From positions 1-35,645 of IMG/VR virus record IMGVR_UViG_3300045988_027218: a DNA stretch of 35,645 nucleotides; one strand, given 5' to 3'. The stretch comes from a virus. Of the stretch, positions 1-35,645 are shown piece by piece; position 1 is the first letter of the stretch; each line of letters starts with the position of its first letter. Both the position numbers and the translations under genes were made by a program. The notes beneath the pieces are model-generated. The model worked only from the letters and a program-made list of their open reading frames with translations, was not told the DNA's origin and did no database searches.

Positions 1-2
1 TT

Positions 3-455
3 ATGAATCTTTTTAAATTTTTAGTAGGTGCTGCAACCATTACAGTTGGCGCATGTGCAGTTGCTGGCAAAGTACGTCGTGATAAACAAAGACAGGAAGA
101 GTTAGATGAATTCTTATGCCCAGATATTGATGAACCTATTGAAAAAGAGATTCAACCAAGTGTAAGTCCATTAAAAAATATGGAATTGGATATTATGGGA
201 TTTAAAGAGGCTGAAGAAGAAATTCTTCCGGTCACACTTACATATAGCTTTGATTCTAAGGAGGCGGCTAAACAATTTCAAACAGAAATTGCTGAAAATG
301 GATTAACTTCTTCGTATGATGATGAAGACAAACTTGTGGATGTAATTTATCATGAGGGTGTAAATGAAAGTGATTTAAAAATTTTGTCAGACACACTTGT
401 AAATGCATGTACAAATACGAGTGCTGAATATAAAGGATTTCATTTTAATAAATAG
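3..455 (+). CDS. hypothetical membrane-anchored protein (N-terminal TM helix, acidic C-terminal domain)
   Basis: ATG at 3 opens a 150-aa ORF. The N-terminus FLVGAATITVGACAVAG is hydrophobic. A strong hairpin terminator follows directly. No family recognised. Confidence 0.55.
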   Translation: MNLFKFLVGAATITVGACAVAGKVRRDKQRQEELDEFLCPDIDEPIEKEIQPSVSPLKNMELDIMGFKEAEEEILPVTLTYSFDSKEAAKQFQTEIAENGLTSSYDDEDKLVDVIYHEGVNESDLKILSDTLVNACTNTSAEYKGFHFNK

Positions 456-6067: not shown

Positions 6068-6615
6068 AAACAAAATTAATAGGTAATTTCATCAGAAAAT
6101 CAAGAAATGAAGATGGAAACCTAGAAATAACATTTGAATTGACTGAGCCAATATACGAATCATACGCTCAGACACTCGAAAAAGGGGCATATAGCGTGAT
6201 TATAGATTCTGTTAAGCATTTACGTACTAACAATCAGAATCGGCTTATGTGGGCATTAATCAAGGAAATAAGTGAAAACGAAAACGCAAGCTACAACGAT
6301 ACATGGGATATGTATTGCGAATTCTTGAGAATGGCAAAAGCGTTATATACATATGTTTCAGTTTTGAAAGATGGTGTTGATTCGTTGGCTCAAGCTCATG
6401 GAGTTAGAGCAGTTCAAATATTGGGCACTGAGATAAGAGACAATGGAAATGAATTTGTGAATTGTAGATTGTTTTTGGGTAGCTCACAAATGGACACAAA
6501 ACAAATGGGAGTCTTAATTGATTGCATATTAGATTATGCAGAACAATTAGGAATCAGTACCCAATATTATTTAGATAAAGGAATCAAGGTGGAAGAAAAT
6601 AAAGTTTGTAATTAA
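6064..6615 (+). CDS. NinB/Orf-like recombination mediator
   Basis: RTNNQNRLMWALIKEIS...TWDMYCEF and GSSQMDTKQMGVLIDCILDYAEQLGI parallel lambda NinB motifs (RSLDQNRKLWACLGDVS...ESWKCVF; STSRMRVGEFAELLELIQAFGTERGV), recalled from memory. Confidence 0.55.
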   Translation: MKTKLIGNFIRKSRNEDGNLEITFELTEPIYESYAQTLEKGAYSVIIDSVKHLRTNNQNRLMWALIKEISENENASYNDTWDMYCEFLRMAKALYTYVSVLKDGVDSLAQAHGVRAVQILGTEIRDNGNEFVNCRLFLGSSQMDTKQMGVLIDCILDYAEQLGISTQYYLDKGIKVEENKVCN

Positions 6616-6976
6616 AGGAAAACTAGATGGATTGAATGAATATATTAATGCTTGCAGAACGAACCGCTACAAAGGAGCAGAAATGAAGAAAAAGAATGAG
6701 CGATTAGTTATGGCTTATATCTTACAGGCAGTAAACTTTGGTGAAATTTACGAAGTTAAGAACTACCCAATTAAATTAAATATTAATTGGTATGAACCGA
6801 ATTCAAGGCGTGATGTTGATAACGTAACATTCGCAACTAAATTCATTCAAGATTCATTAGTTAGAACAGGAATACTTGAGGATGATTCAAGGAAATACAT
6901 TAATCAAGTGAATCATTCAGTATTTACAGATAAACAAAATCCAAGAATAGAGGTAGAAATTCTAGGGGGTGATTAG
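6599..6976 (+). CDS. rusA: RusA-family Holliday-junction resolvase (putative ATA start)
   Basis: (M)KFVIKGKLDGLNEYINACRTNRYKGAEMKKK...NWYEPNSRRDVDNVTFATKFIQDSLV is the RusA pattern. The conserved N-terminus lies upstream of the ORF-track TTG 6632. There is no in-frame ATG/GTG/TTG after stop 6572. SD AGGTGG (6587-6592) is followed by 6 nt and then ATA 6599. Confidence 0.75.
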   Translation: MKFVIKGKLDGLNEYINACRTNRYKGAEMKKKNERLVMAYILQAVNFGEIYEVKNYPIKLNINWYEPNSRRDVDNVTFATKFIQDSLVRTGILEDDSRKYINQVNHSVFTDKQNPRIEVEILGGD

Positions 6977-7933: not shown

Positions 7934-8551
7934 ATGGACTACATGATGTTAGAGCCTTACACAAATGAATTTAAAGGATTTGTAAGCGACGAAAAGGTAA
8001 TGGACGAGTTAGGGTTAACGAAAGCACAATTTGACGCACACGTTATGTATCAAAGGTTATATAAAGGATGTGTATTAATTGAAGATGAAGCAGATGAAAA
8101 GAAAGCAAGCGATACAGAAATGTATGAATTAATTGAAACATCCAAAACAGGCAGAAGATGGTACATTTCAAATCGTTTAAATGTAATTTCAGTTAGTAAA
8201 GATGGAGTGAAAAGCAAGATTCATCCTTCATTTGATAAAGGAGCTTACAGAGTTTGTATAAATGGGAAGATGTATCAACTATACAGATTAGCATATAAAG
8301 CTTTTATTGGTGAATTGAGCAGAAGTTACAAAGTTCGCTTAAAAGGAAAAAAACACGTTAAGAATCTTTATCTTGTAAGCAATGGAATTGACGGTGGAAA
8401 AGTATGTCAAAAGAAAGTTGTATTAAATGGAGTTGAATATGAATCAATCGCACAATGCGCAAGAAATACAGGATATACACCTAGTGCAATATCAATTATG
8501 TTGCGTGGAATCGTAAAGAACAGTTTAGGTGTTAGATATGCAGAGGTATAA
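7934..8551 (+). CDS. DNA-binding protein related to NUMOD-type homing endonucleases (catalytic His apparently absent)
   Basis: RRWYISNRLNVISVSKDGVKSKIHPSFDKGAYRVCINGKMYQLYRLAYKAFIG resembles the NUMOD4/HNH_3 core but has YRL where HRL is expected. The C-terminus VLNGVEYESIAQCARNTGYTPSAISIMLRG resembles a NUMOD1 HTH. Confidence 0.4.
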   Translation: MDYMMLEPYTNEFKGFVSDEKVMDELGLTKAQFDAHVMYQRLYKGCVLIEDEADEKKASDTEMYELIETSKTGRRWYISNRLNVISVSKDGVKSKIHPSFDKGAYRVCINGKMYQLYRLAYKAFIGELSRSYKVRLKGKKHVKNLYLVSNGIDGGKVCQKKVVLNGVEYESIAQCARNTGYTPSAISIMLRGIVKNSLGVRYAEV

Positions 8552-11905: not shown

Positions 11906-12388
11906 ATGATTAATGTAGTAGTAATAGCAGGACATCTAACTAAAGATGTTGAATTATCAAAAACACAAAAAGGAAATAGCGTAGCAAAATTTACAGTAGC
12001 AGTAAATGGAATCAATGATAATACAGATTTTATTAATTGTGTGGCATGGAATAAATTAGCAGATATTGTAAATATGTATTGCAAAAAAGGTGATTTAGTT
12101 ACAGTCGAAGGAAGAATTAGTGTTAGAAATTATGAGAATCAACAAGGGCAGAAAGTGTATATCACTGAGGTTGTGGCTAATAACGTGCAATTACCGCCTA
12201 AAAACGCTTCTAATGGGCAGAATTATAGTTCTAATGTAAATGCATATCAATATCCAAATCAAGCAAATAGCAACGCTTACGGCGTTCAAAACACATATAC
12301 GCAACCTAGTTTAACACAACAGATTGCACAACAAGAATATAACGGTGAAAATGATTTAGATATTGCTTCAGACGATTTACCATTCTAG
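11906..12388 (+). CDS. ssb: single-stranded DNA-binding protein
   Basis: OB-fold N-terminus MINVVVIAGHLTKDVELSKTQKGNSVAKFTVAVNG...VEGRISVRNYENQQGQKVYITEVVANNVQL, a Q/N-rich linker and the acidic tail DDLPF. Confidence 0.92.
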   Translation: MINVVVIAGHLTKDVELSKTQKGNSVAKFTVAVNGINDNTDFINCVAWNKLADIVNMYCKKGDLVTVEGRISVRNYENQQGQKVYITEVVANNVQLPPKNASNGQNYSSNVNAYQYPNQANSNAYGVQNTYTQPSLTQQIAQQEYNGENDLDIASDDLPF

Positions 12389-12406
12389 GAGGTGGCACTA
12401 ATAGAA

Positions 12407-12595
12407 ATGAATTATGAAGAAAGGATTAAAGAGTTAATTTCTAAGAATAACAGATTAGGAATGGCGAACATTGAGCTTAATCAGACTTTAAAAGAAAGAA
12501 ATGCAACAATTCATAATCAAACACACGAGATTAATAGATTAAAAAATAAAGTTGGCGAATTAGAAAATAGATTAATGAGGATGTATACATCATGA
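12407..12595 (+). CDS. hypothetical coiled-coil protein
   Basis: ATG 12407 is downstream of AGGAGGTGG. The ORF-track GTG 12392 lies inside the SD. Confidence 0.55.
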   Translation: MNYEERIKELISKNNRLGMANIELNQTLKERNATIHNQTHEINRLKNKVGELENRLMRMYTS

Positions 12596-12918
12596 GTACA
12601 TATGAAGAAGTTAAAAAACATTTTCTATGCGAATGTCAATCTTATACATACTATGAGCAAAAGATAGCAGAGCTACAAAGGGATGAAGCAATTTATCCTT
12701 TAAAAGCCGAGCTATTCTTGGCTCATGCAGATTATGCAAGAAGAATGAATTATGTAAAAGACAAATTAAGCCAACTTGATGATACGACTAGAGCCATGAT
12801 TGAGTATAGATATATAAAGGGATTCAGTGCAGAAAAAACATCTAATATTGTAGGTTATGCACGAGAAGAGATTCCAAGAAAAATAAATAAGAACTTGAAG
12901 AAAGTGCTCACAATGTGA
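12592..12918 (+). CDS. small sigma-70 region-4-like / ArpU-RinA-type late transcription regulator
   Basis: The C-terminal HTH LSQLDDTTRAMIEYRYIKGFSAEKTSNIVGYAREEIPRKINKNLKKV is sigma region-4-like. It is the last gene before the packaging and late module. Confidence 0.55.
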   Translation: MSTYEEVKKHFLCECQSYTYYEQKIAELQRDEAIYPLKAELFLAHADYARRMNYVKDKLSQLDDTTRAMIEYRYIKGFSAEKTSNIVGYAREEIPRKINKNLKKVLTM

Positions 12919-12927
12919 GCATTTTTT
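12905..12927 (+). terminator. hairpin/palindrome TGCTCACAATGTGAGCA plus T6 (terminator and/or regulator site)
   Basis: A perfect 8-bp inverted repeat around one central base (12905-12921) is followed by TTTTTT. It overlaps the stop codon of the regulator gene. A near-identical palindrome occurs at 22586-22600. Confidence 0.55.
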
Positions 12928-12944
12928 CATGTAATAATTGTTTT

Positions 12945-13020
12945 AGCAGGATAGAGCAGTAGTAGCTCACTAGTCTTATTAGCTAGAGGTCGAATGGTGC
13001 AATTCCTTCTCCTGCAACCA
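12945..13020 (+). tRNA. tRNA-like gene, anticodon UAU (reads AUA), with initiator-tRNA-like identity elements
   Basis: 76 nt folds by hand as AGCAGGA-TA-GAGC-AGTAGTA-GCTC-A-CTAGT-CTTATTA-GCTAG-AGGTC-GAA(T)GG-TGCAATT-CCTTC-TCCTGCA-A-CCA. The anticodon TAT is at 12977-12979 and CCA is encoded. Initiator-like features are the A1xA72 mismatch, G2:C71, C3:G70 and A11:U24. Atypical features are a bulged T-stem, G55, no GG in the D-loop, and U37. Confidence 0.6.
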
Positions 13021-13102
13021 TGTTTACAAAGCCTATCAGTAAGTCCTCCCAAAATTAGATATTAAATACCAACAATGGCATACAATTAGGCTTTGATATA
13101 TT

Positions 13103-13127
13103 ACCGAGCGTTTGTCTCGGTTCTTTT
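13103..13127 (+). terminator. rho-independent terminator downstream of the tRNA unit
   Basis: Stem ACCGAG (13103-13108) / CTCGGT (13116-13121) followed by TCTTTT. Confidence 0.55.
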
Positions 13128-13145
13128 AATAATAAGGAGGAGAAT

Positions 13146-13391
13146 ATGGGTTCAAAAGAATTTCAAGAATTAGCAATGAATGCAGTATTTCAAGTGAATC
13201 CAAATATTGCAATCAGTGAAATGTTCGTTGTATGGATGGTTAAAGTGCTTCAAAACAATAAAGCATTGATTAGTGCTCAAAGCACAGATAACTATTACGA
13301 AGTAACGTATAACGGCGATAAAAAGGAGTTATACGTTGATGAATACATAAAGAATACAAATACTTGTCTAAATGTAAATGACGCTCTATGA
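13146..13391 (+). CDS. hypothetical protein
   Basis: SD AAGGAGGAGAAT precedes the ATG. The next gene has an identical initiation region. Confidence 0.65.
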   Translation: MGSKEFQELAMNAVFQVNPNIAISEMFVVWMVKVLQNNKALISAQSTDNYYEVTYNGDKKELYVDEYIKNTNTCLNVNDAL

Positions 13392-13409
13392 GCTTAAAAG
13401 GAGGAGAAT

Positions 13410-13991
13410 ATGAATATTGTTGAAAAAAGATTAAATGAGCTAAAACCTTATGAGAATAATCCTAGAATCAATGATGGAGCAGTGAAATTTGTTAAAAATT
13501 CTATTGAGGAATTCGGCTTCAAAGTGCCTATTGTTATTGATAAAAATGGAGTGATTGTTGCAGGTCATACACGATATAAAGCTAGTCAAGAATTAGGCTT
13601 AGAAACTGTTCCTTGCGTGGTTGCAGATGATTTAACAGATGAGCAAGTAAAAGCATTTAGAATTGCAGATAATAAAACGGCAGAAAAAGCGTCTTGGGAT
13701 TTAGACGCATTAAAAACAGAAATGGAAGAGCTTGAAGAAATTGACGGAATCGATATGAGAGAATTCGGATTCGGCGATTTTGAAATTAGTGCATTAACTG
13801 AGGACATGGATGCAGAAGGATATGACAACGAGCTTATGGACGCATTTAGCGAACATTCAGAAGATATGCTAAAAAAGCAACGTGTAATCATTACATATGA
13901 AACAGAGGAAGAACAACTATTCTTAGAGAAACTATTGCAGGTAACTGAATTGAAAGTGTGCTACGACATCGAGGAATTAATGCATGAATAA
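13410..13991 (+). CDS. ParB N-terminal-domain (ParB/sulfiredoxin-like nuclease) protein
   Basis: LKPYENNPRINDGAVKFVKNSIEEFGFKVPIVIDKNGVIVAGHTRYKASQELGLETVPCVV matches the ParB-like pattern. The C-terminus is acidic. Confidence 0.75.
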   Translation: MNIVEKRLNELKPYENNPRINDGAVKFVKNSIEEFGFKVPIVIDKNGVIVAGHTRYKASQELGLETVPCVVADDLTDEQVKAFRIADNKTAEKASWDLDALKTEMEELEEIDGIDMREFGFGDFEISALTEDMDAEGYDNELMDAFSEHSEDMLKKQRVIITYETEEEQLFLEKLLQVTELKVCYDIEELMHE

Positions 13992-14562
13992 CATCTATTA
14001 TGCAATAGCTAGTTACCATAGACCAAAATGTAAAACGTATTACGCACTAAAAGAATGTGGAATTGAAGATGAAAGAATTGTTATTAGCTTAAATGATTCA
14101 AATGATTTCAAAACTTATGTTGAAACATTAGGAAGTCAAGCTCAAATCATTACTAGGCGTGGAAATAACGTAGCTTCGAATAGAAATAACATTCTAAATT
14201 ATTTTGAAAATGGGGCAAAAATCATCTTACTAGATGATGACATCAGAGATTTTAGGAAATGGGAAGAAAAGCAAGGAAATAAATGTGGAGCGCAGAAAAA
14301 AATCACTGAATTGGATAAGACATTTAATGAGGTATTCTCATTTATGCAAAAGAACAATATTCACTTCATGGGATGTCTACCCACAACCAATAATATGAAT
14401 ATAGCTAGCTATGTTAAGAAAGGTGAAACATATTCATTCAATACACTCGTACAAGGTGGATTGTGTTTTGTTATTAAAAGTGAAGAAATCAAATTTGATG
14501 AGAAATGGGATATGTTAGAGGATTATGAATTGAATCAATATGATTGTTATAGGGGGGATTAA
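13984..14562 (+). CDS. GT-A-fold glycosyltransferase-like protein (tentative)
   Basis: IASYHRPKCKTY...NVASNRNNILNYFENGAKIILLDDDIRDF...MLEDYEL resembles the GT2-like layout (YNRP, a DxD-type DDD, ED). This is a weak call made by eye only. Confidence 0.35.
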   Translation: MNNIYYAIASYHRPKCKTYYALKECGIEDERIVISLNDSNDFKTYVETLGSQAQIITRRGNNVASNRNNILNYFENGAKIILLDDDIRDFRKWEEKQGNKCGAQKKITELDKTFNEVFSFMQKNNIHFMGCLPTTNNMNIASYVKKGETYSFNTLVQGGLCFVIKSEEIKFDEKWDMLEDYELNQYDCYRGD

Positions 14563-16242: not shown

Positions 16243-17646
16243 ATAGAAACATCTAACACACGTAGACCGTGGTTTCAAAACTACCTTAACAAAAGAGGGT
16301 ATTATGTAGATACAAACGCAATTGAGATTATTGAATTGTGCAACAAATGGTATACAAATACCGAAACAGAATTTCATACGGCATACACATTAAATAATGA
16401 GGAATACACGCTAGATAAAACAGATTTTGCAAAGCGTTTATGCGAAGATGACGCAAACCTTATTGAAATCCTAGATATAAACGCAACAGAGGACAGTGCT
16501 ACAAATGACATTATTTCAGATATTCTAACGAAGAATAGATTTGATGTTATGTATAGGAAACAAGTTGAGCAAATGTCTGCAAATGGTACAGTAGGAGCTT
16601 ATGTGACGGTATCAAATGCCGAGATTTATGAAGATGGTACATTCAGTGGAGGAGAAATCAGAATCAACTATTGTGATTCAATGAATATCCTTCCATTAAC
16701 TGTTATCAATGATGAAATTGTGGAAGTTGCTTTCGTTGGAGTAAATTATGAGAAGTTAAAAAAAGTATATGTGATGGTCATGTTCTTAAAAGGACAAGAC
16801 GAAAGATATATTGCAGAAACACATTACTTCAAAGATACAGGCGAAGAAATAAAAGAGCGTGCTCAGATTGTTCAACTAGATGTTGTAAAGCCGTTTGCAA
16901 TTATGAGAAACGCAAAGGTAAACAACTTACAAATGCAAGGTTACGGCTTGCCGAAGATTTGGAGCGCAATTGCTCCTTTAAAAACAATTGATTTAACAAT
17001 GACAATGTGGAATCGTGATTTGTTGAAATCAGATAAAATCGTTCTTGTGAATGAAGCATTAATGCAGAAAGACGAGAATGGAAAGATTAAGATGAATCCA
17101 CAAATGAAAAAGATATTTGTTCAGTTAGGTAGAGACAAGTTACCGGAAGAAAAAGCTTTATGGCAAGAATACAATCCAACAGTTAGAACGGCAGAAGTTG
17201 TCCAATCGTTAGAAACTGCATTAAGTATCTTATCAATGATGTTTGGATTCGGTACAAAAAAATACACATTTGAAAGTGGAAGAATCGTAACGGCTACAGA
17301 ATATATCGGCGAAAACCAAGACGCTATGAAGGAAGTAAACTCACAACGTAAAGAATCTACCGCATATATTCAAGATATCATTCAAGCTATAGCATACTTC
17401 TACGAATTAACACAAGGCAGAAAGCTTAATATCAATTCATTAGACATTGCTATTGATTATGACGATACATACATTGAGGATAAGCAAAGCACGGCACAAG
17501 CGTTAAGAAATGACGCACTTACATTTGATATTCCAAGATTAAAGATTATGTATTTCATGAAACAATACGGATTCACAGAAGAAGAAGCAACGGAATTGTT
17601 GAATGAAGAAATTCAAGATGATGGAGAGGGGGATGACGAAGAATAG
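16243..17646 (+). CDS. portal protein (SPP1 gp6-like), ATA start
   Basis: The frame opens at 16240. SD AAGGAGGT (16230-16237) is followed by 5 nt and then ATA. The extension (M)ETSNTRRPWFQNYLNKRGYYVDTNAIEIIELCNKWYTN...FH matches the recalled portal N-terminus (GY.V......I..W..WY). The first canonical codon is TTG 16336. Confidence 0.8.
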   Translation: METSNTRRPWFQNYLNKRGYYVDTNAIEIIELCNKWYTNTETEFHTAYTLNNEEYTLDKTDFAKRLCEDDANLIEILDINATEDSATNDIISDILTKNRFDVMYRKQVEQMSANGTVGAYVTVSNAEIYEDGTFSGGEIRINYCDSMNILPLTVINDEIVEVAFVGVNYEKLKKVYVMVMFLKGQDERYIAETHYFKDTGEEIKERAQIVQLDVVKPFAIMRNAKVNNLQMQGYGLPKIWSAIAPLKTIDLTMTMWNRDLLKSDKIVLVNEALMQKDENGKIKMNPQMKKIFVQLGRDKLPEEKALWQEYNPTVRTAEVVQSLETALSILSMMFGFGTKKYTFESGRIVTATEYIGENQDAMKEVNSQRKESTAYIQDIIQAIAYFYELTQGRKLNINSLDIAIDYDDTYIEDKQSTAQALRNDALTFDIPRLKIMYFMKQYGFTEEEATELLNEEIQDDGEGDDEE

Positions 17647-18452
17647 CAACTACATATTTTCCATTCGTCTCAAGAAATGGCGATAGATTAGTATTATATG
17701 ACGCTTTCAGAAGATTGTTCTCAAGCTACTTTACAAATGGCGTGTTCGTAGATGATTCTAGTTCAGACCATTTAAGAGTTGAGAAGGCTCAAGGCTTAAC
17801 ACTTACAGTTAAGGCAGGACGAGCAAATATTAATGGAGCGTTCTATTGGCAGAAAGATGACGAAACCATCACACTAGAAAAGAATAGCGCTACTAAAAGC
17901 TACAATATTATTCTTAGATTGAATGATAATGACGCATACAGAAACATTACCTTAGTAGCAAGTGATATCAATGATGGAATCACAAGAAGTGATTCTATTT
18001 ATGATTTAGTATTAGCTACGGTAACAGTGACAGGCAATGTGAACGAAGTTAAAGGCTCAGATATTACTGATACAAGATTAGATTCTACACGTTGCGGAGC
18101 AGTTACAAGCACAATTAAAAGCGTACAATCGTTGGATTTATTCACACAGGTTACGGAGTTATTTAAGGAAATTAAAGCTCAGAATGAATCTGAAATGAAT
18201 GCAAATAGAACAGAATTTAATGATTGGTTTGAAACTGTAAAGGATACGTTAGACGCAAATACGGCAGGAAAACTATCGAACAGAATTTCAAACATTGAAA
18301 AGATGATTATGGAGAACCATTTCACCACAATTCTATTAACGGAAGATGGAACACTAGTAGATGAGAATGGTCATGAGATTCTAGCCGATTGGGCGTATGA
18401 AGTTGATAAAGGTGAAGTAGGCAAAGATTGGACTTACAAGGTGAAATCATGA
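17643..18452 (+). CDS. tail-fibre/receptor-binding-type structural protein, ATA start
   Basis: (M)ATTYFPFVSRNGDRLVLYDAFRRLFSSYFTNGVF...LTLTVKAGRANINGAFYW. ATA 17643 overlaps the portal TAG stop (gaATAGca), with the GAGAGGGGGA SD 9 nt upstream. The ORF track starts at TTG 17715. Confidence 0.6.
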   Translation: MATTYFPFVSRNGDRLVLYDAFRRLFSSYFTNGVFVDDSSSDHLRVEKAQGLTLTVKAGRANINGAFYWQKDDETITLEKNSATKSYNIILRLNDNDAYRNITLVASDINDGITRSDSIYDLVLATVTVTGNVNEVKGSDITDTRLDSTRCGAVTSTIKSVQSLDLFTQVTELFKEIKAQNESEMNANRTEFNDWFETVKDTLDANTAGKLSNRISNIEKMIMENHFTTILLTEDGTLVDENGHEILADWAYEVDKGEVGKDWTYKVKS

Positions 18453-19085: not shown

Positions 19086-19694
19086 ATAGCTATTGAATAT
19101 TTAGATAAGAGTGGATTGACGCTCTTAATCAGTAAAATTAAATCGGCGTTAGGTGGGAAAGTTGATGTTGAAATTGGTAAAGGCTTATCAACAAATGACT
19201 ATACTAATGCGGAAAAAAACAAATTAAGTGGTATCGCAAGTGGTGCTCAAGCGAATGTGATTGAGTCTGTAAAGGTTAACGGTACAAAAGTTGAGCCAAG
19301 TTCAAAAGCCGTAGATATTTCAGTGCCTACAAAGGTATCACAATTAACAAATGACAGTGGATTCCAAACATCTACGCAAGTAAATTCAATCGTTACAGGT
19401 AAAGGATATCAAACGCAATCACAAGTACAATCGTTGATTAATTCGGCAGTAGGTAATATTACATCTATTAGATATGAAAAGGTAACGAGCTTACCTGCTA
19501 CAGGTTCAAATGGTGTTATCTATTTGGTAGCACATTCACACGGAACACAAGATATTTATGATGAGTATATTTGGCTTTCAGAGACAAAGACATATGAAAA
19601 GATTGGTAATACAGACATTGATTTATCGGCATACGTTAAGAAGTCAGAATTAACTGCGATTACTACAAATGATTTAAATACAATGTGGGGTTAG
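19086..19694 (+). CDS. tail-fibre-type protein, ATA start
   Basis: (M)AIEYLDKSGLTLLISKIKSALGGKVDVEIGKGLSTNDYTNAEKNKLSGI. SD AGGAGGA (19073-19079) is followed by 6 nt and then ATA. The ORF track starts at TTG 19116. Confidence 0.6.
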   Translation: MAIEYLDKSGLTLLISKIKSALGGKVDVEIGKGLSTNDYTNAEKNKLSGIASGAQANVIESVKVNGTKVEPSSKAVDISVPTKVSQLTNDSGFQTSTQVNSIVTGKGYQTQSQVQSLINSAVGNITSIRYEKVTSLPATGSNGVIYLVAHSHGTQDIYDEYIWLSETKTYEKIGNTDIDLSAYVKKSELTAITTNDLNTMWG

Positions 19695-23276: not shown

Positions 23277-24146
23277 ATAGCAAATCAAATTGCATTAGCT
23301 AAAACGTATGTTTCAAATTTAGATGAAGTTTACAAGTTAGCTTCAGTAACAGGCGATTTAAACGCCGACGCTACAATGGTAAGAGCCGGAGCAAACGCAA
23401 AAGAAATCATCTATCCACAAATTTCTGTTAAAGGTTTAGGAAACTACGATAGAAATAGCGGATATACATCAAATTCAGTTAAATTAGAATGGAAGACTGC
23501 TACATTTGATTACGATAGAGGAACAAAGATTGCAGTTGATACACAAGATAACACAGAATCAATGAATATTGCATTCGGTATGGCAGGAGCGGAATTAATG
23601 CGTACAAAGGTTGCGCCGGAAGCAGACGCTTACACATTCGCTAAGATTGCCGGAACAACAGGTATCACAAAGGTTTCAGAAGATTATACAGGTGCAGAAG
23701 AGTTCTTGAGCGCATTATTAACGGCTATCACTAAAATGGATGAGGATGAAGTTCCTAGCGAACAACGTATCTTGTATTCAACACCAACATTATTGAATAG
23801 CGTTAAGGCATTGGACACTTACAAATCTCGTGAAGCTTTACAAGGATTTGCAAAGGTTGTTCCTGTACCTTCAACACGTTTCTATACAAAGATTAAATTG
23901 TTGAGCGGAGCAGATACAGAAACAGATGGTGGATTCACTAAAGCGGAAGATGGGCACGCAATTAACTTCTTAATTGTTCACAAGCCTGCCGTTATGAAGT
24001 GGGATAAACACACTGTTTCAAATGTAATTCCTGCAAGCAATAACATTGAATCAGATTCAGATGTATTGAAGTATCGTAAGTATGGAATCGTTGATGTATA
24101 CGCAAATAAGGTGGCAGGTATCTACTTATCTGCTAGTGCGAAGTAA
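23277..24146 (+). CDS. major capsid protein, ATA start
   Basis: The frame opens at 23274. SD AAGGAGGA (23262-23269) is followed by 7 nt and then ATA. The extension (M)ANQIALAKTYVSNLDEVYKLASVTGDLNADAT precedes the first ATG (23376) and matches the recalled capsid N-terminus (...Y...LDEVYK.as.t..L). Confidence 0.8.
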   Translation: MANQIALAKTYVSNLDEVYKLASVTGDLNADATMVRAGANAKEIIYPQISVKGLGNYDRNSGYTSNSVKLEWKTATFDYDRGTKIAVDTQDNTESMNIAFGMAGAELMRTKVAPEADAYTFAKIAGTTGITKVSEDYTGAEEFLSALLTAITKMDEDEVPSEQRILYSTPTLLNSVKALDTYKSREALQGFAKVVPVPSTRFYTKIKLLSGADTETDGGFTKAEDGHAINFLIVHKPAVMKWDKHTVSNVIPASNNIESDSDVLKYRKYGIVDVYANKVAGIYLSASAK

Positions 24147-24617: not shown

Positions 24618-25033
24618 CAGGTTTCTTTGAAGATTCAATCACGCTTGTTAATCACTACTACGATACATTGACAAGAGAAGATAAGTTTCAAGCTTCTATA
24701 CTTGATAAATGTATGTGGAGACAATCAACTGTTAGAACTGCAAACGGTAATATTATGAGCATAGCCACATCCACAAATATTACCATTCTATATCGTGAGG
24801 GATATGTTGAACCTTACGCATATGCAAAACTTTCAAATGATGAGAAACAAAAGCACTTTACATTGAATACAGATAAGACAGATTTCGTATTTTTTGGAGA
24901 AGTGAAAGAAGATTTATCCACAATTAAAGCAATAAACGAAGCTAAAAAGAAATACAAATGGACAACAATTCAAAGCGTAACAGATTGTACGAATGTCGAT
25001 ATGTTGAAGCATTGGGAGGTTGTAGGTCAATAG
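24614..25033 (+). CDS. head-closure / minor capsid-type protein (putative)
   Basis: ATG 24614 lies in an ATGA overlap with the upstream stop, giving MTGFFEDSITLVNHY... The ORF-track start 24602 has no SD. Confidence 0.5.
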   Translation: MTGFFEDSITLVNHYYDTLTREDKFQASILDKCMWRQSTVRTANGNIMSIATSTNITILYREGYVEPYAYAKLSNDEKQKHFTLNTDKTDFVFFGEVKEDLSTIKAINEAKKKYKWTTIQSVTDCTNVDMLKHWEVVGQ

Positions 25034-25035
25034 GA

Positions 25036-25392
25036 ATGAAAGTCAAACTTGATGTTAAATCACTTCAAGAATTTAAACAATCAAGAGGACTTGAAGAACG
25101 TGGACGAGTTCAACAAATGATTGATTCTGAAGTCATTAGGCTTATGACCCCTTATACGCCTAGAGACACAGGAGCATTGATAAACTCGGCTACACGATTA
25201 ACACAAATCGGTAGTGGATTAGTAAAGCAAGGTGGACCAAGTGCTCCATATGCTAGACGGTGGTATTACAATAAAGAGAATGCTCATTTCGTAGGAGGTA
25301 AAACAGACCATTGGTTCAAAAAAGCTATGCGAAATGGTGGAGCAGAGACAATCTTAAAGAAAGCACAACAAATGATAGGAGGTAGTGAATGA
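25036..25392 (+). CDS. HK97 gp10-like tail-completion / minor capsid-type protein
   Basis: ...LMTPYTPRDTGALINSAT... is the recalled gp10-like motif. ATG 25036 comes just after the upstream stop. Confidence 0.55.
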   Translation: MKVKLDVKSLQEFKQSRGLEERGRVQQMIDSEVIRLMTPYTPRDTGALINSATRLTQIGSGLVKQGGPSAPYARRWYYNKENAHFVGGKTDHWFKKAMRNGGAETILKKAQQMIGGSE

Positions 25393-25823: not shown

Positions 25824-26330
25824 ATAGCAACTCAAGGAACTGAAGTAAATACAGGACAGACAGTCAAGAAGTATATGATTGGATTGTTCTTACAAATGGG
25901 AGAAGGTTACAAGCGAATTAAGAAATCTACAACTTTAGATATTTCATTTAACAGTGAAACTGAAACGTATGACTTTATCGCAGATAAGAACCCAACCGAA
26001 TCATTAAAGAGTTATTCACCTCAGATTTCGCAAGATTTAACAATGATTAAAGGCGAAGATGACTTTGAATATATTTACGAACAAATGATGAAGTCCGTAC
26101 CAAACAATGAAGAAGTAAATACAAAAGCTTTACTTGTATTCATGTTTGACGGAGACAAAACAAAAGGATACAAGGCGTGGGAAGTTGACGCTAAATTGAT
26201 TTTCGATACGTTAAGTGGTGTTGATTCAAAAATCAATTTCAACATTAACTTTGCAAGCGATATTCGTGTCGGTGTTGCAAAGGTAGCAGATGGAACAGTA
26301 ACCTTCACAGAAGGCACATCAGAAGTATAA
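25824..26330 (+). CDS. major tail protein, ATA start
   Basis: SD GAAAGGAG (25808-25815) is followed by 8 nt and then ATA. The product begins (M)ATQGTEVNTGQTVKKYMIGLFLQMGEGYKRIKKSTTLDISFNSETETYDFIADKNPT. The initiation region TTAATTAATAGCAA is identical to that of the capsid gene. Confidence 0.75.
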   Translation: MATQGTEVNTGQTVKKYMIGLFLQMGEGYKRIKKSTTLDISFNSETETYDFIADKNPTESLKSYSPQISQDLTMIKGEDDFEYIYEQMMKSVPNNEEVNTKALLVFMFDGDKTKGYKAWEVDAKLIFDTLSGVDSKINFNINFASDIRVGVAKVADGTVTFTEGTSEV

Positions 26331-27291: not shown

Positions 27292-29871
27292 ATATCAGAC
27301 GGAACATTAAAGTTTGATACAAAGATAGATACAAGTGGTCTTGAAAATGGTATTAAATCGGTTAGTGATGTATCAAATAAAGCTACAAATGCTATTAAAG
27401 ATACTTCAAATGCGATAGATAAGTTAGGTTCTGAAGGTTCAAAAGCACCACCAAAGATTAAAAATAAACTTAAAGATTTAAATGAAGAGCAAAAGAATAC
27501 ACAAACAGAAACGCAAGAAACAGGTTCTAAATTTGATGTATTTAAACAAGTAGGAAACAGTGCCTTAGAATCAATTCAAGGTGGGTTTGATGGATTACTA
27601 GAGAAGATTCAAAATATTAGTCCGGAAGCAACTACAATCACTGAAACCCTAACAGGATTAGGCGTAGGAGGTGTTGTAGGCGTTACTGCCGTAGCAGGAG
27701 CTATCGGTGGAATGGAATTAGCAATTAAGACAGGTGTAAATCAAGCTACTGAATTAGATGACGCTATGGCTAAACTCCAAGCTCAGACAGGTGCTTCAAG
27801 CAATGAAATGAGCAAATTTAAAAACATTGCTCGTGATGTTTGGTCTAATAATTTTGGTGAAGATATTTCAGATGTTGCCGATATGATGGGCAGAGTCAAG
27901 CAACAAATGCAAGGCATAAGTGATGTTGACCTAAAGAACGTGACCGAGGATTTATTAACTTTAAGAGATACATTCGATATGGATGAGAATGAAACTCTTA
28001 GAGGTGCTCAACAATTAATGAAGCAGTTCGGAATCACTTCTCAAGAAGCTTTTGACCTTATGGCTACAGGTGCTCAGAATGGTTTAAACAAATCAGATGA
28101 GTTAGGCGACAACATTTCAGAATACTCCGGTAAATTCGCACAAGCAGGATATTCGGCAGATGAATATTTCCAATTAATGCAGAATGGATTAGATGGTGGA
28201 GCTTATAACCTTGATAAAGTAAATGACGCAATCAACGAAGTTACCACAAGGTTAGTTGATGGAACTATTGAAGGAGCTTTAGATAGTTTTGATACCAAGA
28301 CGCAAGATGTCTTTAAAGCTTGGCAAGAAGGAAGAGCAACTCAGAAAGATGTTGTAAATGCGATTGTAAAAGATATTTCAAAGACTACAAATGAACAAGA
28401 AAAGTTGAATAAATCGGCAACGGCTTTCGGTACAATGGGAGAAGATTTCAACGCCGGCTTTATTGAATCCTTAACAACGGTAGGAAATAAATATAAAGAT
28501 GTAGAAGGGGCAATGGATAAAGTCAAAGAAATTGCAAATGGTGGCTTAAAGAATGCTTTAAGTGGCTTAGGACGTGCATTTCTTGATTCATTTACTCCAA
28601 TAGGCGAACTTATTACCCCTATTCTTGCAGGTATCATCGGATTAATTACAGTAGCTATACAAGGTATTCAACAAGGATTTGTTAAAGTTGGTGATGTAAT
28701 TTCAAGTGTGTTAAGCAAGATTGATACAAGTGGAATTACAGAATTGACAAGTCAAGTTTCAGAGGTGTTAGCTCCTGCTTTTGATGAGGTCAGAAAAGCG
28801 ATTGACGAAATGAAAGTTGCTCTTGAACCTATTGCAAAAGAAATCTTAGGTAAAATTGGTAACGCAATTCAAAATGTTGTTAACCAAGCTCAAAAGATTC
28901 TTAGCGTTGTAGGACCACCGATTCTAGCAATCATTAAGAAGATTATTCAAACAGTTATCGGTATGACTCCTGTAATAACATCTATCCTTCAAGTAGTTGG
29001 AAGTGTGGTAAGTGGAATCATTTCATTTATAACTATGGTTGTGACGTATGTCGGAACTGCAATTGCAACAATACTAGGATTTATCATGCCTATTGTTCAA
29101 ATCATAGCTACAATCGTAGCGAATATTTGGTCTGTAATATTAACGGTTGCTCAGAATATTTGGAGTAAGGTTAGCGAAGTAGTTACTGCGATTATTGGAT
29201 TTGTAAGCAATTTATTTAAGACGGTTTCGGACATCATAAACAATATTTGGAGTAAGATTCAAGATTCCATGAACAAGGTAAGAGACAAGGTTCAAGGTGT
29301 TATTGATAATATCAATAAATATTTCAATAATGTTAAGAGTACTGTTTCAGATGTATTCAATGGAATTTGGTCTAAGGTACAAAGTGTAATGGACAATGTA
29401 GGGAATAAAATTTCAAATGTTCTACAAGGAATACAAAATGCATGGAGCGGTTTAAAAGGATTTGTAGGTGGTGTATTTGGTGGAATTGAAGGAGCAGTTA
29501 GTTCATTAGTTGGAAGTGTAAAAGGAATGGTAAATGGTGTTATCGGTGGCATTAACGGTGCAATCGGTATCATCAATAAGATTCCCGGTGTACATATCGG
29601 AAGGATTCCAAGATTGGAACGTGGTGGTGTATTAAAACGTGGACAAATCGGTTTATTGGAAGGTAATGGAGCAGAAGCAGTCGTACCATTAGAAAAAAAT
29701 AAAGCGTGGATTCGTGCCGTAGCTAAAGATATGGCTCAAATCATGCCTAGTGTAACCACAAATAACAACGGACAAACAATTAACTTCTACAATAAAGTTC
29801 AAAGTCCGGATGAAATCGCTAGAATGTTACGTATGCAAGCAAGATATGGATATGGAGGTGTAGTTCAATAG
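27292..29871 (+). CDS. tape measure protein, ATA start
   Basis: The frame opens at TGA 27289-27291, directly before ATA 27292. SD AAAGGAGGTGG (27273-27283) lies 8 nt upstream. The 140 codons (M)SDGTLKFDTKIDTSGLENGIKSV... precede the first ATG (27712) and form a typical TMP N-terminus. The protein has a long helical/hydrophobic core with repeated NIWSK motifs. Confidence 0.85.
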   Translation: MSDGTLKFDTKIDTSGLENGIKSVSDVSNKATNAIKDTSNAIDKLGSEGSKAPPKIKNKLKDLNEEQKNTQTETQETGSKFDVFKQVGNSALESIQGGFDGLLEKIQNISPEATTITETLTGLGVGGVVGVTAVAGAIGGMELAIKTGVNQATELDDAMAKLQAQTGASSNEMSKFKNIARDVWSNNFGEDISDVADMMGRVKQQMQGISDVDLKNVTEDLLTLRDTFDMDENETLRGAQQLMKQFGITSQEAFDLMATGAQNGLNKSDELGDNISEYSGKFAQAGYSADEYFQLMQNGLDGGAYNLDKVNDAINEVTTRLVDGTIEGALDSFDTKTQDVFKAWQEGRATQKDVVNAIVKDISKTTNEQEKLNKSATAFGTMGEDFNAGFIESLTTVGNKYKDVEGAMDKVKEIANGGLKNALSGLGRAFLDSFTPIGELITPILAGIIGLITVAIQGIQQGFVKVGDVISSVLSKIDTSGITELTSQVSEVLAPAFDEVRKAIDEMKVALEPIAKEILGKIGNAIQNVVNQAQKILSVVGPPILAIIKKIIQTVIGMTPVITSILQVVGSVVSGIISFITMVVTYVGTAIATILGFIMPIVQIIATIVANIWSVILTVAQNIWSKVSEVVTAIIGFVSNLFKTVSDIINNIWSKIQDSMNKVRDKVQGVIDNINKYFNNVKSTVSDVFNGIWSKVQSVMDNVGNKISNVLQGIQNAWSGLKGFVGGVFGGIEGAVSSLVGSVKGMVNGVIGGINGAIGIINKIPGVHIGRIPRLERGGVLKRGQIGLLEGNGAEAVVPLEKNKAWIRAVAKDMAQIMPSVTTNNNGQTINFYNKVQSPDEIARMLRMQARYGYGGVVQ

Positions 29872-30737
29872 ATATCAATAAAGTAAGAGTTATTGTCCGA
29901 AGGGACGACGGCAAAGAATTTGAAATTGATAACAAAAGATGGAGAATACCATCTAGTGATGGTTTAGATGGATTTGATTATGTAGCACCTTCGTATACTA
30001 CCCAAGACAACGCATTCGGAAATGGTGCTAGATTAATCGGTTCACGTATTCCCACAAAAGAAAGAAGCGTGAAAGCTACCTTTAAAGGCTCACTAGAAGA
30101 AAAAAGAGAAGAAAGGGAGAAGCTACGGCGCTTCTTCCAATATTCTCATGTATTTGATGTGATAGTTGAGTACATGGGAGAAAAGAAATATTGCAGAGGT
30201 CGTTTATATGCATATAGCTTGCCTACTGTTAACATCTACAAAGATTTAGAGCTTAACTTTACAATTCTATGCACACAACCTTTATTGCTTTCATTTGATA
30301 ATTTTGCAAGGAATATCGCAGAAATTGGTGAAGGTTTAGCGTTCAACTTTGAAATACCGGAGACAGGTGTAAACTTTGGAACATTTACATTCGCTAGAGA
30401 AATCTATATTGACAATCAAGGCGATACAGAAACATACTGTAGAGCCGTTATTGAAGCATTTGGAGAGGTAACAAATCCGAAACTATTTAACAAGGATAAA
30501 TATATTCGTGTATTAGATACGCTACACAATGGTGATGTGTTAGAAATTGATTTAGTTTCTGAACCTATTTCGATAAAGAAAAATGGTGTGAATTGTATCG
30601 GCAAAGTTGATAGAACATCATCATTCAATGATATGACGATTCAGTTAGGCGAGAATATCATAGGATATACGGCAGACAATGGAGATACGAATCTAGCTTG
30701 CACGGTTTATTACAATGAAAGGTATTTAGGTTTATAG
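29868..30737 (+). CDS. distal tail protein (Dit), ATA start
   Basis: ATA 29868 overlaps the TMP TAG stop (caATAGat). SD GGAGGTG (29854-29860) lies 7 nt upstream. The 67 codons (M)DINKVRVIVRRDDGKEFEIDNKRWRIPSSDGLDGFDYVAPSYTTQDNAFGNGARLIGSRIPTKERS precede the first canonical codon, GTG 30069. Confidence 0.75.
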   Translation: MDINKVRVIVRRDDGKEFEIDNKRWRIPSSDGLDGFDYVAPSYTTQDNAFGNGARLIGSRIPTKERSVKATFKGSLEEKREEREKLRRFFQYSHVFDVIVEYMGEKKYCRGRLYAYSLPTVNIYKDLELNFTILCTQPLLLSFDNFARNIAEIGEGLAFNFEIPETGVNFGTFTFAREIYIDNQGDTETYCRAVIEAFGEVTNPKLFNKDKYIRVLDTLHNGDVLEIDLVSEPISIKKNGVNCIGKVDRTSSFNDMTIQLGENIIGYTADNGDTNLACTVYYNERYLGL

Positions 30738-31764: not shown

Positions 31765-32271
31765 ATAGAAAAGAACAATGGAGGATTTAAACAAATAACA
31801 AGAAGTATGTATTTTCTAGACAAGATGAATGCAATGGGCGGTGTAGCAGTTGCCGTATTAACATATGTTTTAGGTGAACATTGGTATTTATTTGCATTCT
31901 TCTTATTTATGAATATTGTGGATTATATTACAGGGTGCATGAAGTCGGCGATTAATCACAAAATCAATAGCAATAAAGGATGGATTGGAGTCCTTAAAAA
32001 GCTAGGCTATTGGATTATGATTGTAGTTGCGTTCACATTCAGTGCATTCTTGGTAGAAATTGGAAAAATGCTAGGAATTGATTTTCATGTAACAACATTA
32101 GTAGGTTGGTTTGTATTGGCTTCTTTATGTATTAATGAAGTGCGTAGCATTATTGAGAACCTTGTACAATGTGGATATAGCGTGCCTAACGTATTAACTA
32201 AAGGATTAGAAGTAGCAGATAAACTCGTTAACGAAGAACAAGACAATGACGAATCAAGTACCTTGGAATAA
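31765..32271 (+). CDS. holin (phage_holin_4 / LL-H type); the long form possibly starts at ATA
   Basis: FFLFMNIVDYITGCMKSAINHKINSNKGWIGVLKKLGYWIMIVV is the recalled holin-4 pattern, with three hydrophobic segments. SD AAGGAG (31751-31756) is followed by 8 nt and then ATA 31765. The in-frame ATGs at 31807, 31825 and 31834 have no SD. The ORF-track GTG 31756 lies inside the SD. Confidence 0.7.
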   Translation: MEKNNGGFKQITRSMYFLDKMNAMGGVAVAVLTYVLGEHWYLFAFFLFMNIVDYITGCMKSAINHKINSNKGWIGVLKKLGYWIMIVVAFTFSAFLVEIGKMLGIDFHVTTLVGWFVLASLCINEVRSIIENLVQCGYSVPNVLTKGLEVADKLVNEEQDNDESSTLE

Positions 32272-34883: not shown

Positions 34884-35645
34884 ATAAATTATCAAAGTTT
34901 TAAAAAAGCCGTATTAGGCAAAGCATTCGATATTGACGGATATTATGGTGCGCAGTGTTGGGACGGATTCGCAAAGTACATGATTGATTTAGGATATAAA
35001 GCAATCCATTGTACAACAAGCAAATTTGTAAAAGACATTTGGAACAATCGAAAAGCAAATGGTATCTTGAACTATTGTAATGAGGTCTCAATTATGCAAC
35101 CGGGAGACATTGCGGTATTTAAAGAAGTAGCAGGATGGACTCCATACTCACATATCGCAATCTTTGATTCTGATATTGACGGAAAGCAAGGATGGTTCTT
35201 GGGTCAAAATCAAGGTGGAAAAGGTGGAGCATTCAATTTAATTAAATTGCCTTATTATGCAACATTTGATACTGCGTTTAGACCTAAATGTTTCGCAAAT
35301 ACAGGAGCAGTTAAACCAAGCATTCCACAACCTGTAGAAGCAATTGACCAAATCTTGCACGCAGGAAGCTACGTAACATCCGTACAAATGAAGATTGGCA
35401 ATCAAGGATTGAAACAAATCAATGGCGATTTATGCGCATACCTTGCACAATTAGGTGGTTGGTTTCCAATTCGTATGGTTGACAAAGTTCGCTATTCTGA
35501 TGGATATAATGATAACGTATTGCATACAACAAATGCCGTTGTCTATGTTACAAGAATTCGTGTTGATGAAGTCAACGTGCAAAAGAATCTTGTGAAAATC
35601 GGTGGAATTTGGGTAAATTGTAGCCCATTAATTGAAGTAGCATAA
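34884..35645 (+). CDS. endolysin: N-terminal CHAP amidase/peptidase plus a C-terminal SH3b-like wall-binding domain, ATA start
   Basis: (M)NYQSFKKAVLGKAFDIDGYYGAQCWDGFAKYMIDLGY...YSHIAIFD. The CHAP nucleophile Cys codon (34956-34958) lies upstream of the first ATG (34980). The frame opens at 34860 with no canonical start. SD AAAGGAGGA (34869-34877) is followed by 6 nt and then ATA. Confidence 0.85.
   Translation: MNYQSFKKAVLGKAFDIDGYYGAQCWDGFAKYMIDLGYKAIHCTTSKFVKDIWNNRKANGILNYCNEVSIMQPGDIAVFKEVAGWTPYSHIAIFDSDIDGKQGWFLGQNQGGKGGAFNLIKLPYYATFDTAFRPKCFANTGAVKPSIPQPVEAIDQILHAGSYVTSVQMKIGNQGLKQINGDLCAYLAQLGGWFPIRMVDKVRYSDGYNDNVLHTTNAVVYVTRIRVDEVNVQKNLVKIGGIWVNCSPLIEVA

Follow-up and report, generated by a model that had tools for sequence, protein, structure and literature searches.

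The 35,645-nucleotide viral sequence considered here (IMG/VR record IMGVR_UViG_3300045988_027218, positions 1 to 35,645; "the window" denotes this whole stretch) is a prophage that appears to possess its own start signal. At 12945–13020 it carries a transfer RNA (tRNA) gene in which the anticodon UAU is set into a scaffold resembling a bacterial initiator tRNA, and at least 12 of its approximately 59 forward-strand genes (about a fifth) start with ATA, preceded by an A and a Shine-Dalgarno (SD) motif. The reading preferred here, with a probability of about 0.8 on the basis of the sequence comparisons, is that of a phage-encoded initiator tRNA retargeted from AUG to AUA. With somewhat less assurance, it is likely that the tRNA and the start codons form a natural orthogonal initiation system, in which a private tRNA with UAU and U37 reads A-AUA, probably begins proteins with formyl-isoleucine and controls the translation of virion and lysis genes independently of the host AUG and tRNA-fMet. 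The preliminary description of this DNA, made from its letters, had proposed an AUA-decoding phage initiator, and the proposal is supported by the scaffold, the ATA starts, their co-occurrence with the tRNA in related phages and the complementarity of position 37 to the nucleotide preceding the start codon.

The central element is the following.

12945–13020, + strand: tRNA gene, putative initiator type, anticodon UAU, A1×A72 mismatch, encoded CCA (Rfam RF00005, covariation, 97 copies).

The hand-made cloverleaf of the preliminary description was exact in its letters and its pairing. From the 5′ end, the window reads AGCAGGA, TA, GAGC-AGTAGTA-GCTC (D arm), A, CTAGT-CTTATTA-GCTAG (anticodon arm), AGGTC (variable loop), GAA(T)GG-TGCAATT-CCTTC (T arm), TCCTGCA, A and CCA. 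The Rfam RF00005 covariance model returns the same cloverleaf over 12945–13017 (model positions 1–71) with 48 bits (threshold 29, E-value 2e-7), treating 1:72 as a non-pair and the additional T-stem U as an insertion. The suggested check with tRNA-finding programs gave a divided answer: the gene is found by the covariance model only, and ARAGORN, run on the whole window, calls no tRNA, probably due to G55, the absent GG and the T-stem bulge. The minimum-energy fold is also the cloverleaf and is thermodynamically unexceptional, as is usual for tRNAs.

The anticodon TAT occupies 12977–12979, as had been stated, and is followed by T at position 37 (12980), giving the anticodon loop CUUAUUA. All of the scaffold marks named earlier are present: the acceptor end combines A1×A72, G2:C71, C3:G70, A73 and the encoded CCA, and the D stem GAGC/GCTC forms A11:U24. 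G2:C71, C3:G70 and A73 are determinants of the formyltransferase. The variable loop AGGTC and the 3′ end GCAACCA, whose likeness to Escherichia coli tRNA-fMet had been pointed out earlier, are identical to those of E. coli metZ. The oddities of the molecule are equally visible, namely the bulged U in the T stem, the 7-nt D loop AGTAGTA without GG, the T loop TGCAATT with G at position 55, and U37; in the window lineage, A18/G19 and G55/C56 take the place of the elbow contacts G18–U55 and G19–C56. The anticodon stem contains the G:C pairs 27:43 and 30:40, together with U31·G39 and A29:U41. The single G:C pair reported for this stem is therefore correct for the initiator positions 29–31:39–41, where G30:C40 stands alone in place of the G:C triplet, and one short for the stem as a whole. 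Shetty et al. identified G30:C40 (the middle pair, or just G30) as the essential one of the three G:C pairs in E. coli (PMC5389676). The objection drawn from the missing triplet is softened, because G30:C40 is invariant in every lineage of this tRNA described below (the window's own and three more distant ones, B, C and D) and suffices in E. coli.

The assignment of the scaffold to initiators rather than elongators, which had been suggested from single positions, holds in whole-gene comparison. Against verified E. coli genes (metZ, metT, ileX and ileT), the window tRNA is 65% identical to tRNA-fMet, compared with 49% to the elongator tRNA-Met, 55% to tRNA-Ile2 (ileX) and 53% to tRNA-Ile (ileT). 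Over all lineages, the identity to tRNA-fMet is 65–77% (77% in lineage B) versus 46–58% to the elongator Met, Ile2 and Ile tRNAs, and the E. coli elongators compared have C11:G24, unlike the A11:U24 of the window tRNA. A BLAST search of the window tRNA against E. coli genomes gave no match. Among 50,697 phage genomes, the best matches are annotated tRNA-Met genes of the initiator type (phages Phabba, MD18 and Milchi), which share the acceptor end, the D arm, the variable loop and the CUAG anticodon stem with the window tRNA. A broader pattern for phage initiator-like tRNAs with the anticodon stem CUAG(C/U)...GCUAG returned 96 matches in 94 DNA stretches, and all of those outside the window's lineage have CAT and A37. 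The CUAGC/GCUAG family of phage tRNA-Met(CAU) genes (L034–L099 and L001–L004) is itself without the three G:C pairs and keeps G30:C40. In place of the CAU of bacterial initiators, UAU is invariant in the 97 copies of the window's lineage and in lineages B–D; an INPHARED search with the lineage B and D tRNAs returned CAU initiators only, and no cultured phage with UAU and U37.

The set of copies began with a pattern scan of IMG/VR, which found this anticodon arm in 28 viral contigs, and was extended by further scans and protein-anchored searches to 97 copies of a nearly invariant gene with nine sequence variants. The variation is confined to the bulged base, positions 59, 47 and 31 (U or C opposite G39), and one stem sub-variant, in which TCGGT/GCCGA replaces CTAGT/GCTAG, with three pairs changed on both sides and the loop and U31·G39 unchanged. 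The spacer 3′ of the tRNA shows many substitutions and indels in the same 97-copy alignment. Among 17 related sequences, cloverleaf pairing holds in 96.4% of cells versus 39–49% with the partners slid, 13 pairs have compensatory changes, and the D stem GAGC/GCTC is invariant; across both covariation alignments, the corresponding values are 96.4–96.5%, 35–50% and 13–15 pairs changed on both sides. The tRNAs of the relatives score 48–65 bits with the Rfam tRNA model. The segment 12945–13020 is a real, conserved tRNA gene.

The second part of the system is the set of genes that begin with ATA. When the 5′ ends of long open reading frames were surveyed for an SD-like motif and the codon after it, the window yielded 22 ATG, 13 ATA and 2 GTG; control phages yielded 0–2 ATA, in poor contexts. 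The 12 sites retained are listed below.

6599–6976, + strand: RusA-like resolvase, AAGGTGGAAGAAA then ATA; PHROG match at residues 2–122, first canonical start at residue 12; ATA and −1 A invariant in 9 relatives.

12401–12595, + strand: small coiled-coil protein, AGGAGGTGGCACTA then ATA; SD spacing 7 to the ATA and 12 to the downstream ATG; ATA and −1 A invariant in 28 relatives, spacer variable.

16243–17646, + strand: portal protein, AAGGAGGTAAGAA then ATA; phrog_533 at residues 22–462, first canonical start TTG 16336 (residue 32); ATA invariant in 41 relatives.

17643–18452, + strand: head protein, ATA start; phrog_1220 at residues 3–224, first canonical start TTG 17715 (residue 25); ATA invariant in 41 relatives.

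19086–19694, + strand: structural-region gene (phrog_24103), ATA start; profile positions 4–195 against residues 4–200; in 23 relatives, 19 ATA and 4 ATG.

23277–24146, + strand: major head protein, AAGGAGGATTAATTA then ATA; phrog_422 positions 2–294 against residues 2–288.

25030–25392, + strand: minor head protein, ATA overlapping the upstream stop (ATAG); phrog_556 at residues 2–118.

25824–26330, + strand: tail-region gene (phrog_3099), ATA start; in 34 relatives, 33 ATA and 1 ATG.

27292–29871, + strand: tape measure protein, AAGGAGGTGGCAAATTGA then ATA; tape measure profiles from residue 7, first canonical ATG at residue 141; ATA invariant in 26 relatives.

29868–30737, + strand: distal tail protein (Dit), ATA start; phrog_33 at residues 20–288, first canonical start GTG at residue 68.

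31765–32271, + strand: holin, AAGGAGTGAATTTA then ATA; Pfam Phage_holin_4_1, upstream GTG inside the SD.

34884–35645, + strand: CHAP endolysin, ATA start, cut by the window end; CHAP and endolysin profiles from residue 2.

The existence of these genes, also proposed in the preliminary description, is borne out by homology, by profile coverage and by the interchange of ATA and ATG in relatives. All 12 sites have a strong SD and an in-frame stop 0–15 codons upstream (no more than 8 at most sites); this TGA, TAA or TAG often lies only a few codons away, and directly before the ATA at 27292 only. At 10 of the 12, a start at the next canonical codon would cut well into the conserved protein, and at 12401 and 25030 an ATG follows two codons downstream. 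Profile matches begin at residues 2–22 of the ATA-initiated translations. For the major head (capsid) protein, the N-terminus I-ANQIALAKTYVSNLDEVYKLAS aligns residue for residue with M-ANSITKFKAYTSMLDEVYKLAS of gp16 from Eggerthella phage PMBT5, and its residue 1 also aligns with Met1 of gp26 from Ruminococcus phage RG-TP1 and with the ATG of a reading frame in the unannotated record MT835795. In the endolysin, which is 58% identical to lysins of S. agalactiae phages from residue 3, the first ATG is residue 33, past the catalytic Cys of the QCWD motif.

Nine of the sites show no change in the ATA or in the A before it across 41 related loci, while their spacers and second codons vary. The sole alternative to ATA at these start codons is ATG (4 of 23 at 19086 and 1 of 34 at 25824); ATT or ATC was never seen there in about 40 relatives. 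At 25030, the ATA is invariant and the ATG two codons downstream varies (ATG, ATC, ATA or ATT). The ATA starts make the late genes tightly packed, and they are concentrated in virion and lysis genes, with 10 among the approximately 32 genes downstream of the tRNA. G stands at +4 in 9 of the 12 ATA-start genes. The integrase and the minus-strand lysogeny genes have canonical starts. A further ATA at 14597, which follows AGGAGG within the terminase small subunit gene terS, was rejected as a start; relatives have GTA there, and terS starts with ATG at 14540. Sites 5537 and 6978 are ambiguous, with TTG or GTG two to three codons upstream.

The base before the start codon connects the two parts. 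A occupies −1 at 12 of 12 ATA starts, compared with 19 of 43 ATG starts (Fisher p = 3e-4), and is mostly kept at the ATA candidates of lineages B–D. Since U37 is complementary to this A, the start signal amounts to the four bases AAUA, which U34-A35-U36-U37 would read. Höllerer and Jeschek reported that in E. coli complementarity between the mRNA −1 base and position 37 of the initiator raises translation, an A37U initiator included (PMC10018350). U37 had been counted as an argument against an initiator; this objection is softened, because the invariant −1 A at every ATA start is complementary to U37. We infer that the change of A37 to U stabilizes a codon-anticodon helix otherwise made of A:U pairs throughout, and that it adds discrimination against the host initiator, which would meet mismatches at C34/A(+3) and A37/A(−1).

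The preliminary description had advised a search of related phages for the joint presence of the tRNA and ATA starts, and the search found both together in four diverged lineages. The UAU tRNA is present in each of the 31 portal-anchored relatives that extend far enough upstream. Lineage B (L150 and L168, portal 63% identical) follows the same pattern, the UAU tRNA and ATA starts both being found in the L168 locus. A portal-alignment search added eight loci from more distant phages with portals 55–59% identical, which form lineages C and D. In each of the eight, a single tRNA lies some 1.9 kb ahead of the portal gene, and there are 2–13 candidate SD+ATA sites (2 in the short 5.2-kb locus L214 and 4–13 in the others, a range that also takes in lineage B), located at the portal, at terS and, where the locus reaches, at the capsid, tape measure and Dit genes. 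A tRNA with a non-standard anticodon thus co-occurs with the genes that need it, as expected of phage recoding, in 31 of 31 relatives, the eight C and D loci and L168. The four tRNA lineages are 72–79% identical to each other, with compensatory differences in the acceptor, anticodon and T stems. They have in common G2:C71, C3:G70, A73, CCA, A11:U24, G30:C40, U31·G39 and the loop CUUAUUA, and position 1:72 is unpaired in all of them (A×A in the window, C×A in B, G×A in C and D). Lineages B–D have normal D loops with GG and normal T loops (TTCGATT or TTCAAGT), and ARAGORN calls them tRNA-Ile(tat).

In phages that have a capsid homologue and lack a tRNA of this kind, the capsid gene starts with ATG; these are PMBT5 (a complete genome with no tRNA), RG-TP1 (only a tRNA-Asn) and MT835795. 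A different arrangement is seen in Streptococcus phage Javan59 (L220), in which an unannotated initiator-type tRNA(CAU) with C1×A72 lies at 12001–12073, just upstream of terS. It occupies the same slot as the window tRNA, and the genes of Javan59, the one CAU-tRNA phage in which start codons were examined, begin with ATG. Unrelated viral and metagenomic contigs, as well as five metagenome-assembled genome (MAG) or genome contigs, also carry initiator-like tRNAs with UAU and A37 (L141, L142/L179, L143/L149, L148/L200, L164/L204, L161/L202, L184/L199 and L153–L157); no clear ATA starts were seen near them, and the claim is therefore limited to the group with UAU and U37. One of them, L141, has a CAU-carrying relative with which it shares 98.7% identity across most of 6.4 kb of downstream sequence. 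A scan of genome contigs for initiator-like UAU tRNAs gave five unrelated matches, several with broken acceptor stems and none of the window lineage.

The mechanism proposed for the retargeted initiator would proceed as follows. The tRNA would most likely be charged with isoleucine by isoleucyl-tRNA synthetase (IleRS). The anticodon is dominant in the identity of Met and Ile tRNAs; isoleucine is expected because the anticodon is the main identity element and methionyl-tRNA synthetase (MetRS) needs C34, and, by analogy with engineered anticodon mutants of initiators, the charged amino acid is probably Ile. The host formyltransferase, which reads the acceptor end, would then formylate the aminoacyl-tRNA, and the 1×72 mismatch would keep it off EF-Tu. 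The initiation factor IF2 would place it in the 30S P site, where U34-A35-U36 would pair with AUA and U37 with the −1 A. The resulting four-base AAUA:UAUU helix would offset the three weak A:U pairs and disfavour the host tRNA-fMet with its C34 and A37. Initiation at such a signal would then be efficient only in the presence of the phage tRNA. One plausible purpose is a translational lock on the lytic genes, suggested because the integrase and the minus-strand lysogeny genes use canonical starts; insulation from host initiation control is another.

The identity of the first amino acid is where the strongest competing explanation enters, although its probability is low. An AUA initiator could be charged with methionine, so that the proteins would still begin with formyl-methionine, provided that U34 is modified or the host MetRS is relaxed. 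The acceptor features of tRNA-fMet (A73, G2:C71 and C3:G70) are indeed kept, AUA is read as Met in some mitochondrial codes, and the probable host family, Erysipelotrichaceae, is unstudied for the specificity of its aminoacyl-tRNA synthetases. Opposed to this, C34 is the dominant identity element for MetRS, and the Pfam list of window genes contains neither a tRNA-modifying enzyme nor an aminoacyl-tRNA synthetase. In engineered initiators with mutated anticodons, both the start codon used and the amino acid inserted there follow the new anticodon (bioRxiv 10.1101/2021.05.25.445580), which again argues for isoleucine.

A slightly less probable account separates the tRNA from the start codons altogether. 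In it, the gene is an elongator tRNA-Ile(UAU) that aids the reading of internal AUA, and the ATA starts are read inefficiently by the host tRNA-fMet with the help of a strong SD. UAU is a known Ile anticodon in some bacteria, the label tRNA-Ile(tat) that ARAGORN gives to lineages B–D agrees with it, and SD matches are longer in ATA-start than in ATG-start genes (mean 6.75 versus 5.28 nt, p = 0.004). RG-TP1, as described below, seems to have one ATA start in the absence of a UAU tRNA. Of the marks of an elongator tRNA-Ile(UAU), however, the window gene has the anticodon and lacks the paired 1:72, Y11:R24, the purine at 37 and an Ile-like sequence; 1:72 is mismatched in all lineages, and R11:Y24 and U37 are wrong for an elongator reading ANN codons. 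Raised internal AUA usage was looked for in the window genes and was not seen. There are 149 internal ATA codons, 19% of the Ile codons, a share that would be ordinary for AT-rich Firmicutes, and they are not enriched in late genes; the genes at 12401, 17643, 19086, 23277 (capsid) and 25824 contain none. From this frequency it follows that AUA presumably keeps its Ile meaning inside genes, during elongation. Moreover, the invariant −1 A suits U37 of this tRNA and not A37 of the host initiator, and the most abundant virion proteins would hang on one of the weakest start codons.

That the gene is a decaying or non-translational initiator copy (a pseudogene, a decoy for a tRNA-targeting defence or an integration-site remnant) with merely coincidental ATA starts is very improbable: G55, the D loop without GG, the T-stem bulge, U37, the ARAGORN-negative result, the scattered UAU initiator-like sequences with damaged acceptor stems in a few MAGs and the L141 tRNA beside ATG-start genes would agree with it, but the gene hardly varies among its 97 copies and its stem changes are compensatory, four lineages of 72–79% identity keep CUUAUUA, U31·G39, G30:C40, the 1×72 mismatch and CCA, lineages B–D have normal D and T loops, and the tRNA is found in every relative with ATA starts.

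Several observations nevertheless weigh against a retargeted initiator. First, the window copy is the most deviant of its family (A18/G55 for G18/U55, the T-stem bulge and the negative ARAGORN result), and of the three initiator G:C pairs it has just one. Second, U37 excludes the t6A37 normally used by IleRS, which makes the efficiency of charging uncertain. Third, two early or middle genes located before the tRNA, those at 6599 and 12401, also have ATA starts, and a gating of late genes only is weakened by these two. The stronger SD at ATA-start genes could alone partly offset a weak start codon, and the link between the tRNA and the ATA starts is drawn from co-occurrence and complementarity. 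Fourth, the UAU/A37 initiator-like tRNA of L141 adjoins late genes that use ATG. Finally, RG-TP1, without a UAU tRNA, seems to have one ATA start that overlaps the upstream stop (GTAATA); the tRNA is therefore not indispensable for initiation at ATA, at least under coupling, and the RG-TP1 case may represent coupled initiation independent of the tRNA. In RG-TP1 (L140, 14681–15070), the annotated minor head protein (start 14858) is apparently truncated and its conserved N-terminus extends upstream, where this ATA is the sole candidate for the start; the window homologue at 25030 also overlaps its upstream stop (ATAG).

The tRNA gene sits after a sigma-like regulator gene and before the packaging genes, between two terminator-like hairpins. 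The features around it are the following.

12592–12918, + strand: sigma-like regulator gene (weak PHROG sigma-factor match).

12905–12927, + strand: terminator-like hairpin TGCTCAC-AAT-GTGAGCA (12905–12921) followed by TTTTTT, at the end of the regulator gene (letters and scan).

12930–12938, + strand: possible extended −10 element TGTAATAAT, separated by 6 nt from the first base of the tRNA (suggested by the letters).

13027–13096, + strand: long-range 9-bp hairpin CAAAGCCUA / UAGGCUUUG in the tRNA 3′ trailer, before the terminator (fold z-score −2.4).

13103–13131, + strand: intrinsic terminator-like hairpin (13103–13121) and T run, closing the tRNA unit before the gene at 13146 (scan).

A simple promoter scan upstream of the tRNA called nothing; relatives keep TGN-[A/G]ATAAT at the candidate −10, and lineage B does not have it at the same distance. 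In the hairpin at 13027–13096, a change of CC to TT on one arm accompanies GG to GA on the other in relatives, a partial covariation, and the structure could be involved in processing or packaging. The interval between the tRNA and terS (13146–14562) contains genes with DUF6275, ParB_N and a weak TAGT-like Pfam match, assigned from identical genes, which may form a DNA-modification or partition-like module.

The flank of the prophage is visible in a longer copy of the contig (L219 1–1350; window 1–455), in the order rplQ (L17) end, O-methyltransferase, a 150-aa membrane protein and the prophage integrase. The nearest named homologues of the O-methyltransferase (63–67%) belong to Erysipelotrichaceae (Catenisphaera, Floccifex and Holdemanella), and copies 99% identical are found only in metagenome assemblies (966 member sequences). 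The host family is probably Erysipelotrichaceae, gut Firmicutes, as judged from this flank. The endolysin resembles lysins of Streptococcus phages and of Clostridium innocuum/Amedibacillus phages. All copies of the tRNA lineage come from human-gut metagenomes, and the GenBank phage collection holds no copy of the window's lineage. MT835795 (L139), a human-faecal phage scaffold with the closest tRNA-less capsid homologue, contains two type II hammerhead ribozymes and a RAGATH-28 RNA, these elements lying at 241–312, 895–968 and 8186–8277, and in RG-TP1 a GP20-b RNA motif precedes the scaffold gene.

To our knowledge, every natural initiator tRNA described so far carries CAU, and non-AUG starts are explained by wobble with that tRNA. 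A search of the full-text literature found no natural non-CAU initiator tRNA and no phage system of ATA starts. If the retargeted initiator is real, a dedicated AUA initiator would be the first exception and would reveal a further means by which viruses change the genetic code. The recoding would be of a new natural kind assembled from known components, and start-codon recoding would stand as the counterpart to the known stop-codon recoding of phages. The practical consequences concern annotation. Public gene calls on near-identical contigs with an identical terminase gene (L158–L160) truncate every ATA-start gene and leave apparent gaps between genes; the portal, for example, is given 436 of its 467 aa and the capsid protein 256 of 289. 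Gene callers disallow ATA starts, and public protein sets for these phages are therefore clipped at the N-terminus; with the first ATG taken as its start, the endolysin would lose its catalytic Cys. The tRNA itself is labelled tRNA-Ile or missed by standard tools. For synthetic biology, the system would offer an evolved and presumably efficient orthogonal pair of initiator and start codon, including a solution at position 37 and −1 of a kind that experiments have characterized only of late. It also opens questions about the need for the three-G:C rule, the formylation determinants and IF3 proofreading, and about whether private start codons gate lytic genes or escape host initiation control.

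The system can be placed among five known ones. With E. coli metZ/metY, the window tRNA shares the 1×72 mismatch, G2:C71, C3:G70, A73, GAGC/GCTC, AGGTC, GCAACCA, G30:C40 and CCA. It differs in having UAU and U37 for CAU and A37, and A:U and U·G for the G:C pairs at 29:41 and 31:39; A18, G55 and the T-stem bulge belong to the window lineage alone. The phage tRNA-Met(CAU) genes of Mycobacterium phage Phabba, Pseudomonas phage Milchi and Phaeobacter phage MD18 (all annotated tRNA-Met) and of Stenotrophomonas phage vB_Sm_QDWS359 (annotated tRNA-fMet) belong to the same sequence family but have CAU and A37, whereas UAU and U37 together with ATA-start genes are found only in the window's group. The elongator tRNA-Ile(UAU) has the same anticodon, complementary to AUA, and lends its name to the window's relatives in ARAGORN. 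It is known in bacteria without lysidine (the Mycoplasma mobile type, and a B. subtilis suppressor), and a purine, t6A37, is expected in it; the window scaffold differs in its 49–55% identity to E. coli elongators, the 1:72 mismatch, A11:U24 and U37.

The closest functional parallel is given by engineered initiators (amber, i-tRNA(AAC) and the Schulman/RajBhandary mutants), in which an altered anticodon moves initiation to the complementary codon, and by the engineered A37U initiator, which favours A at −1. These are laboratory constructs in E. coli, whereas the system of the window is natural and conserved, with its own recoded genes and a second-site change at position 37. Phages also recode stop codons through phage-encoded suppressor tRNAs. 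The likeness lies in a phage tRNA with an altered anticodon that gives a codon a non-standard meaning, mainly in lytic and structural genes. The suppressors act in elongation and on stop codons; the window system would act in initiation and on a sense codon, ATA at start positions.

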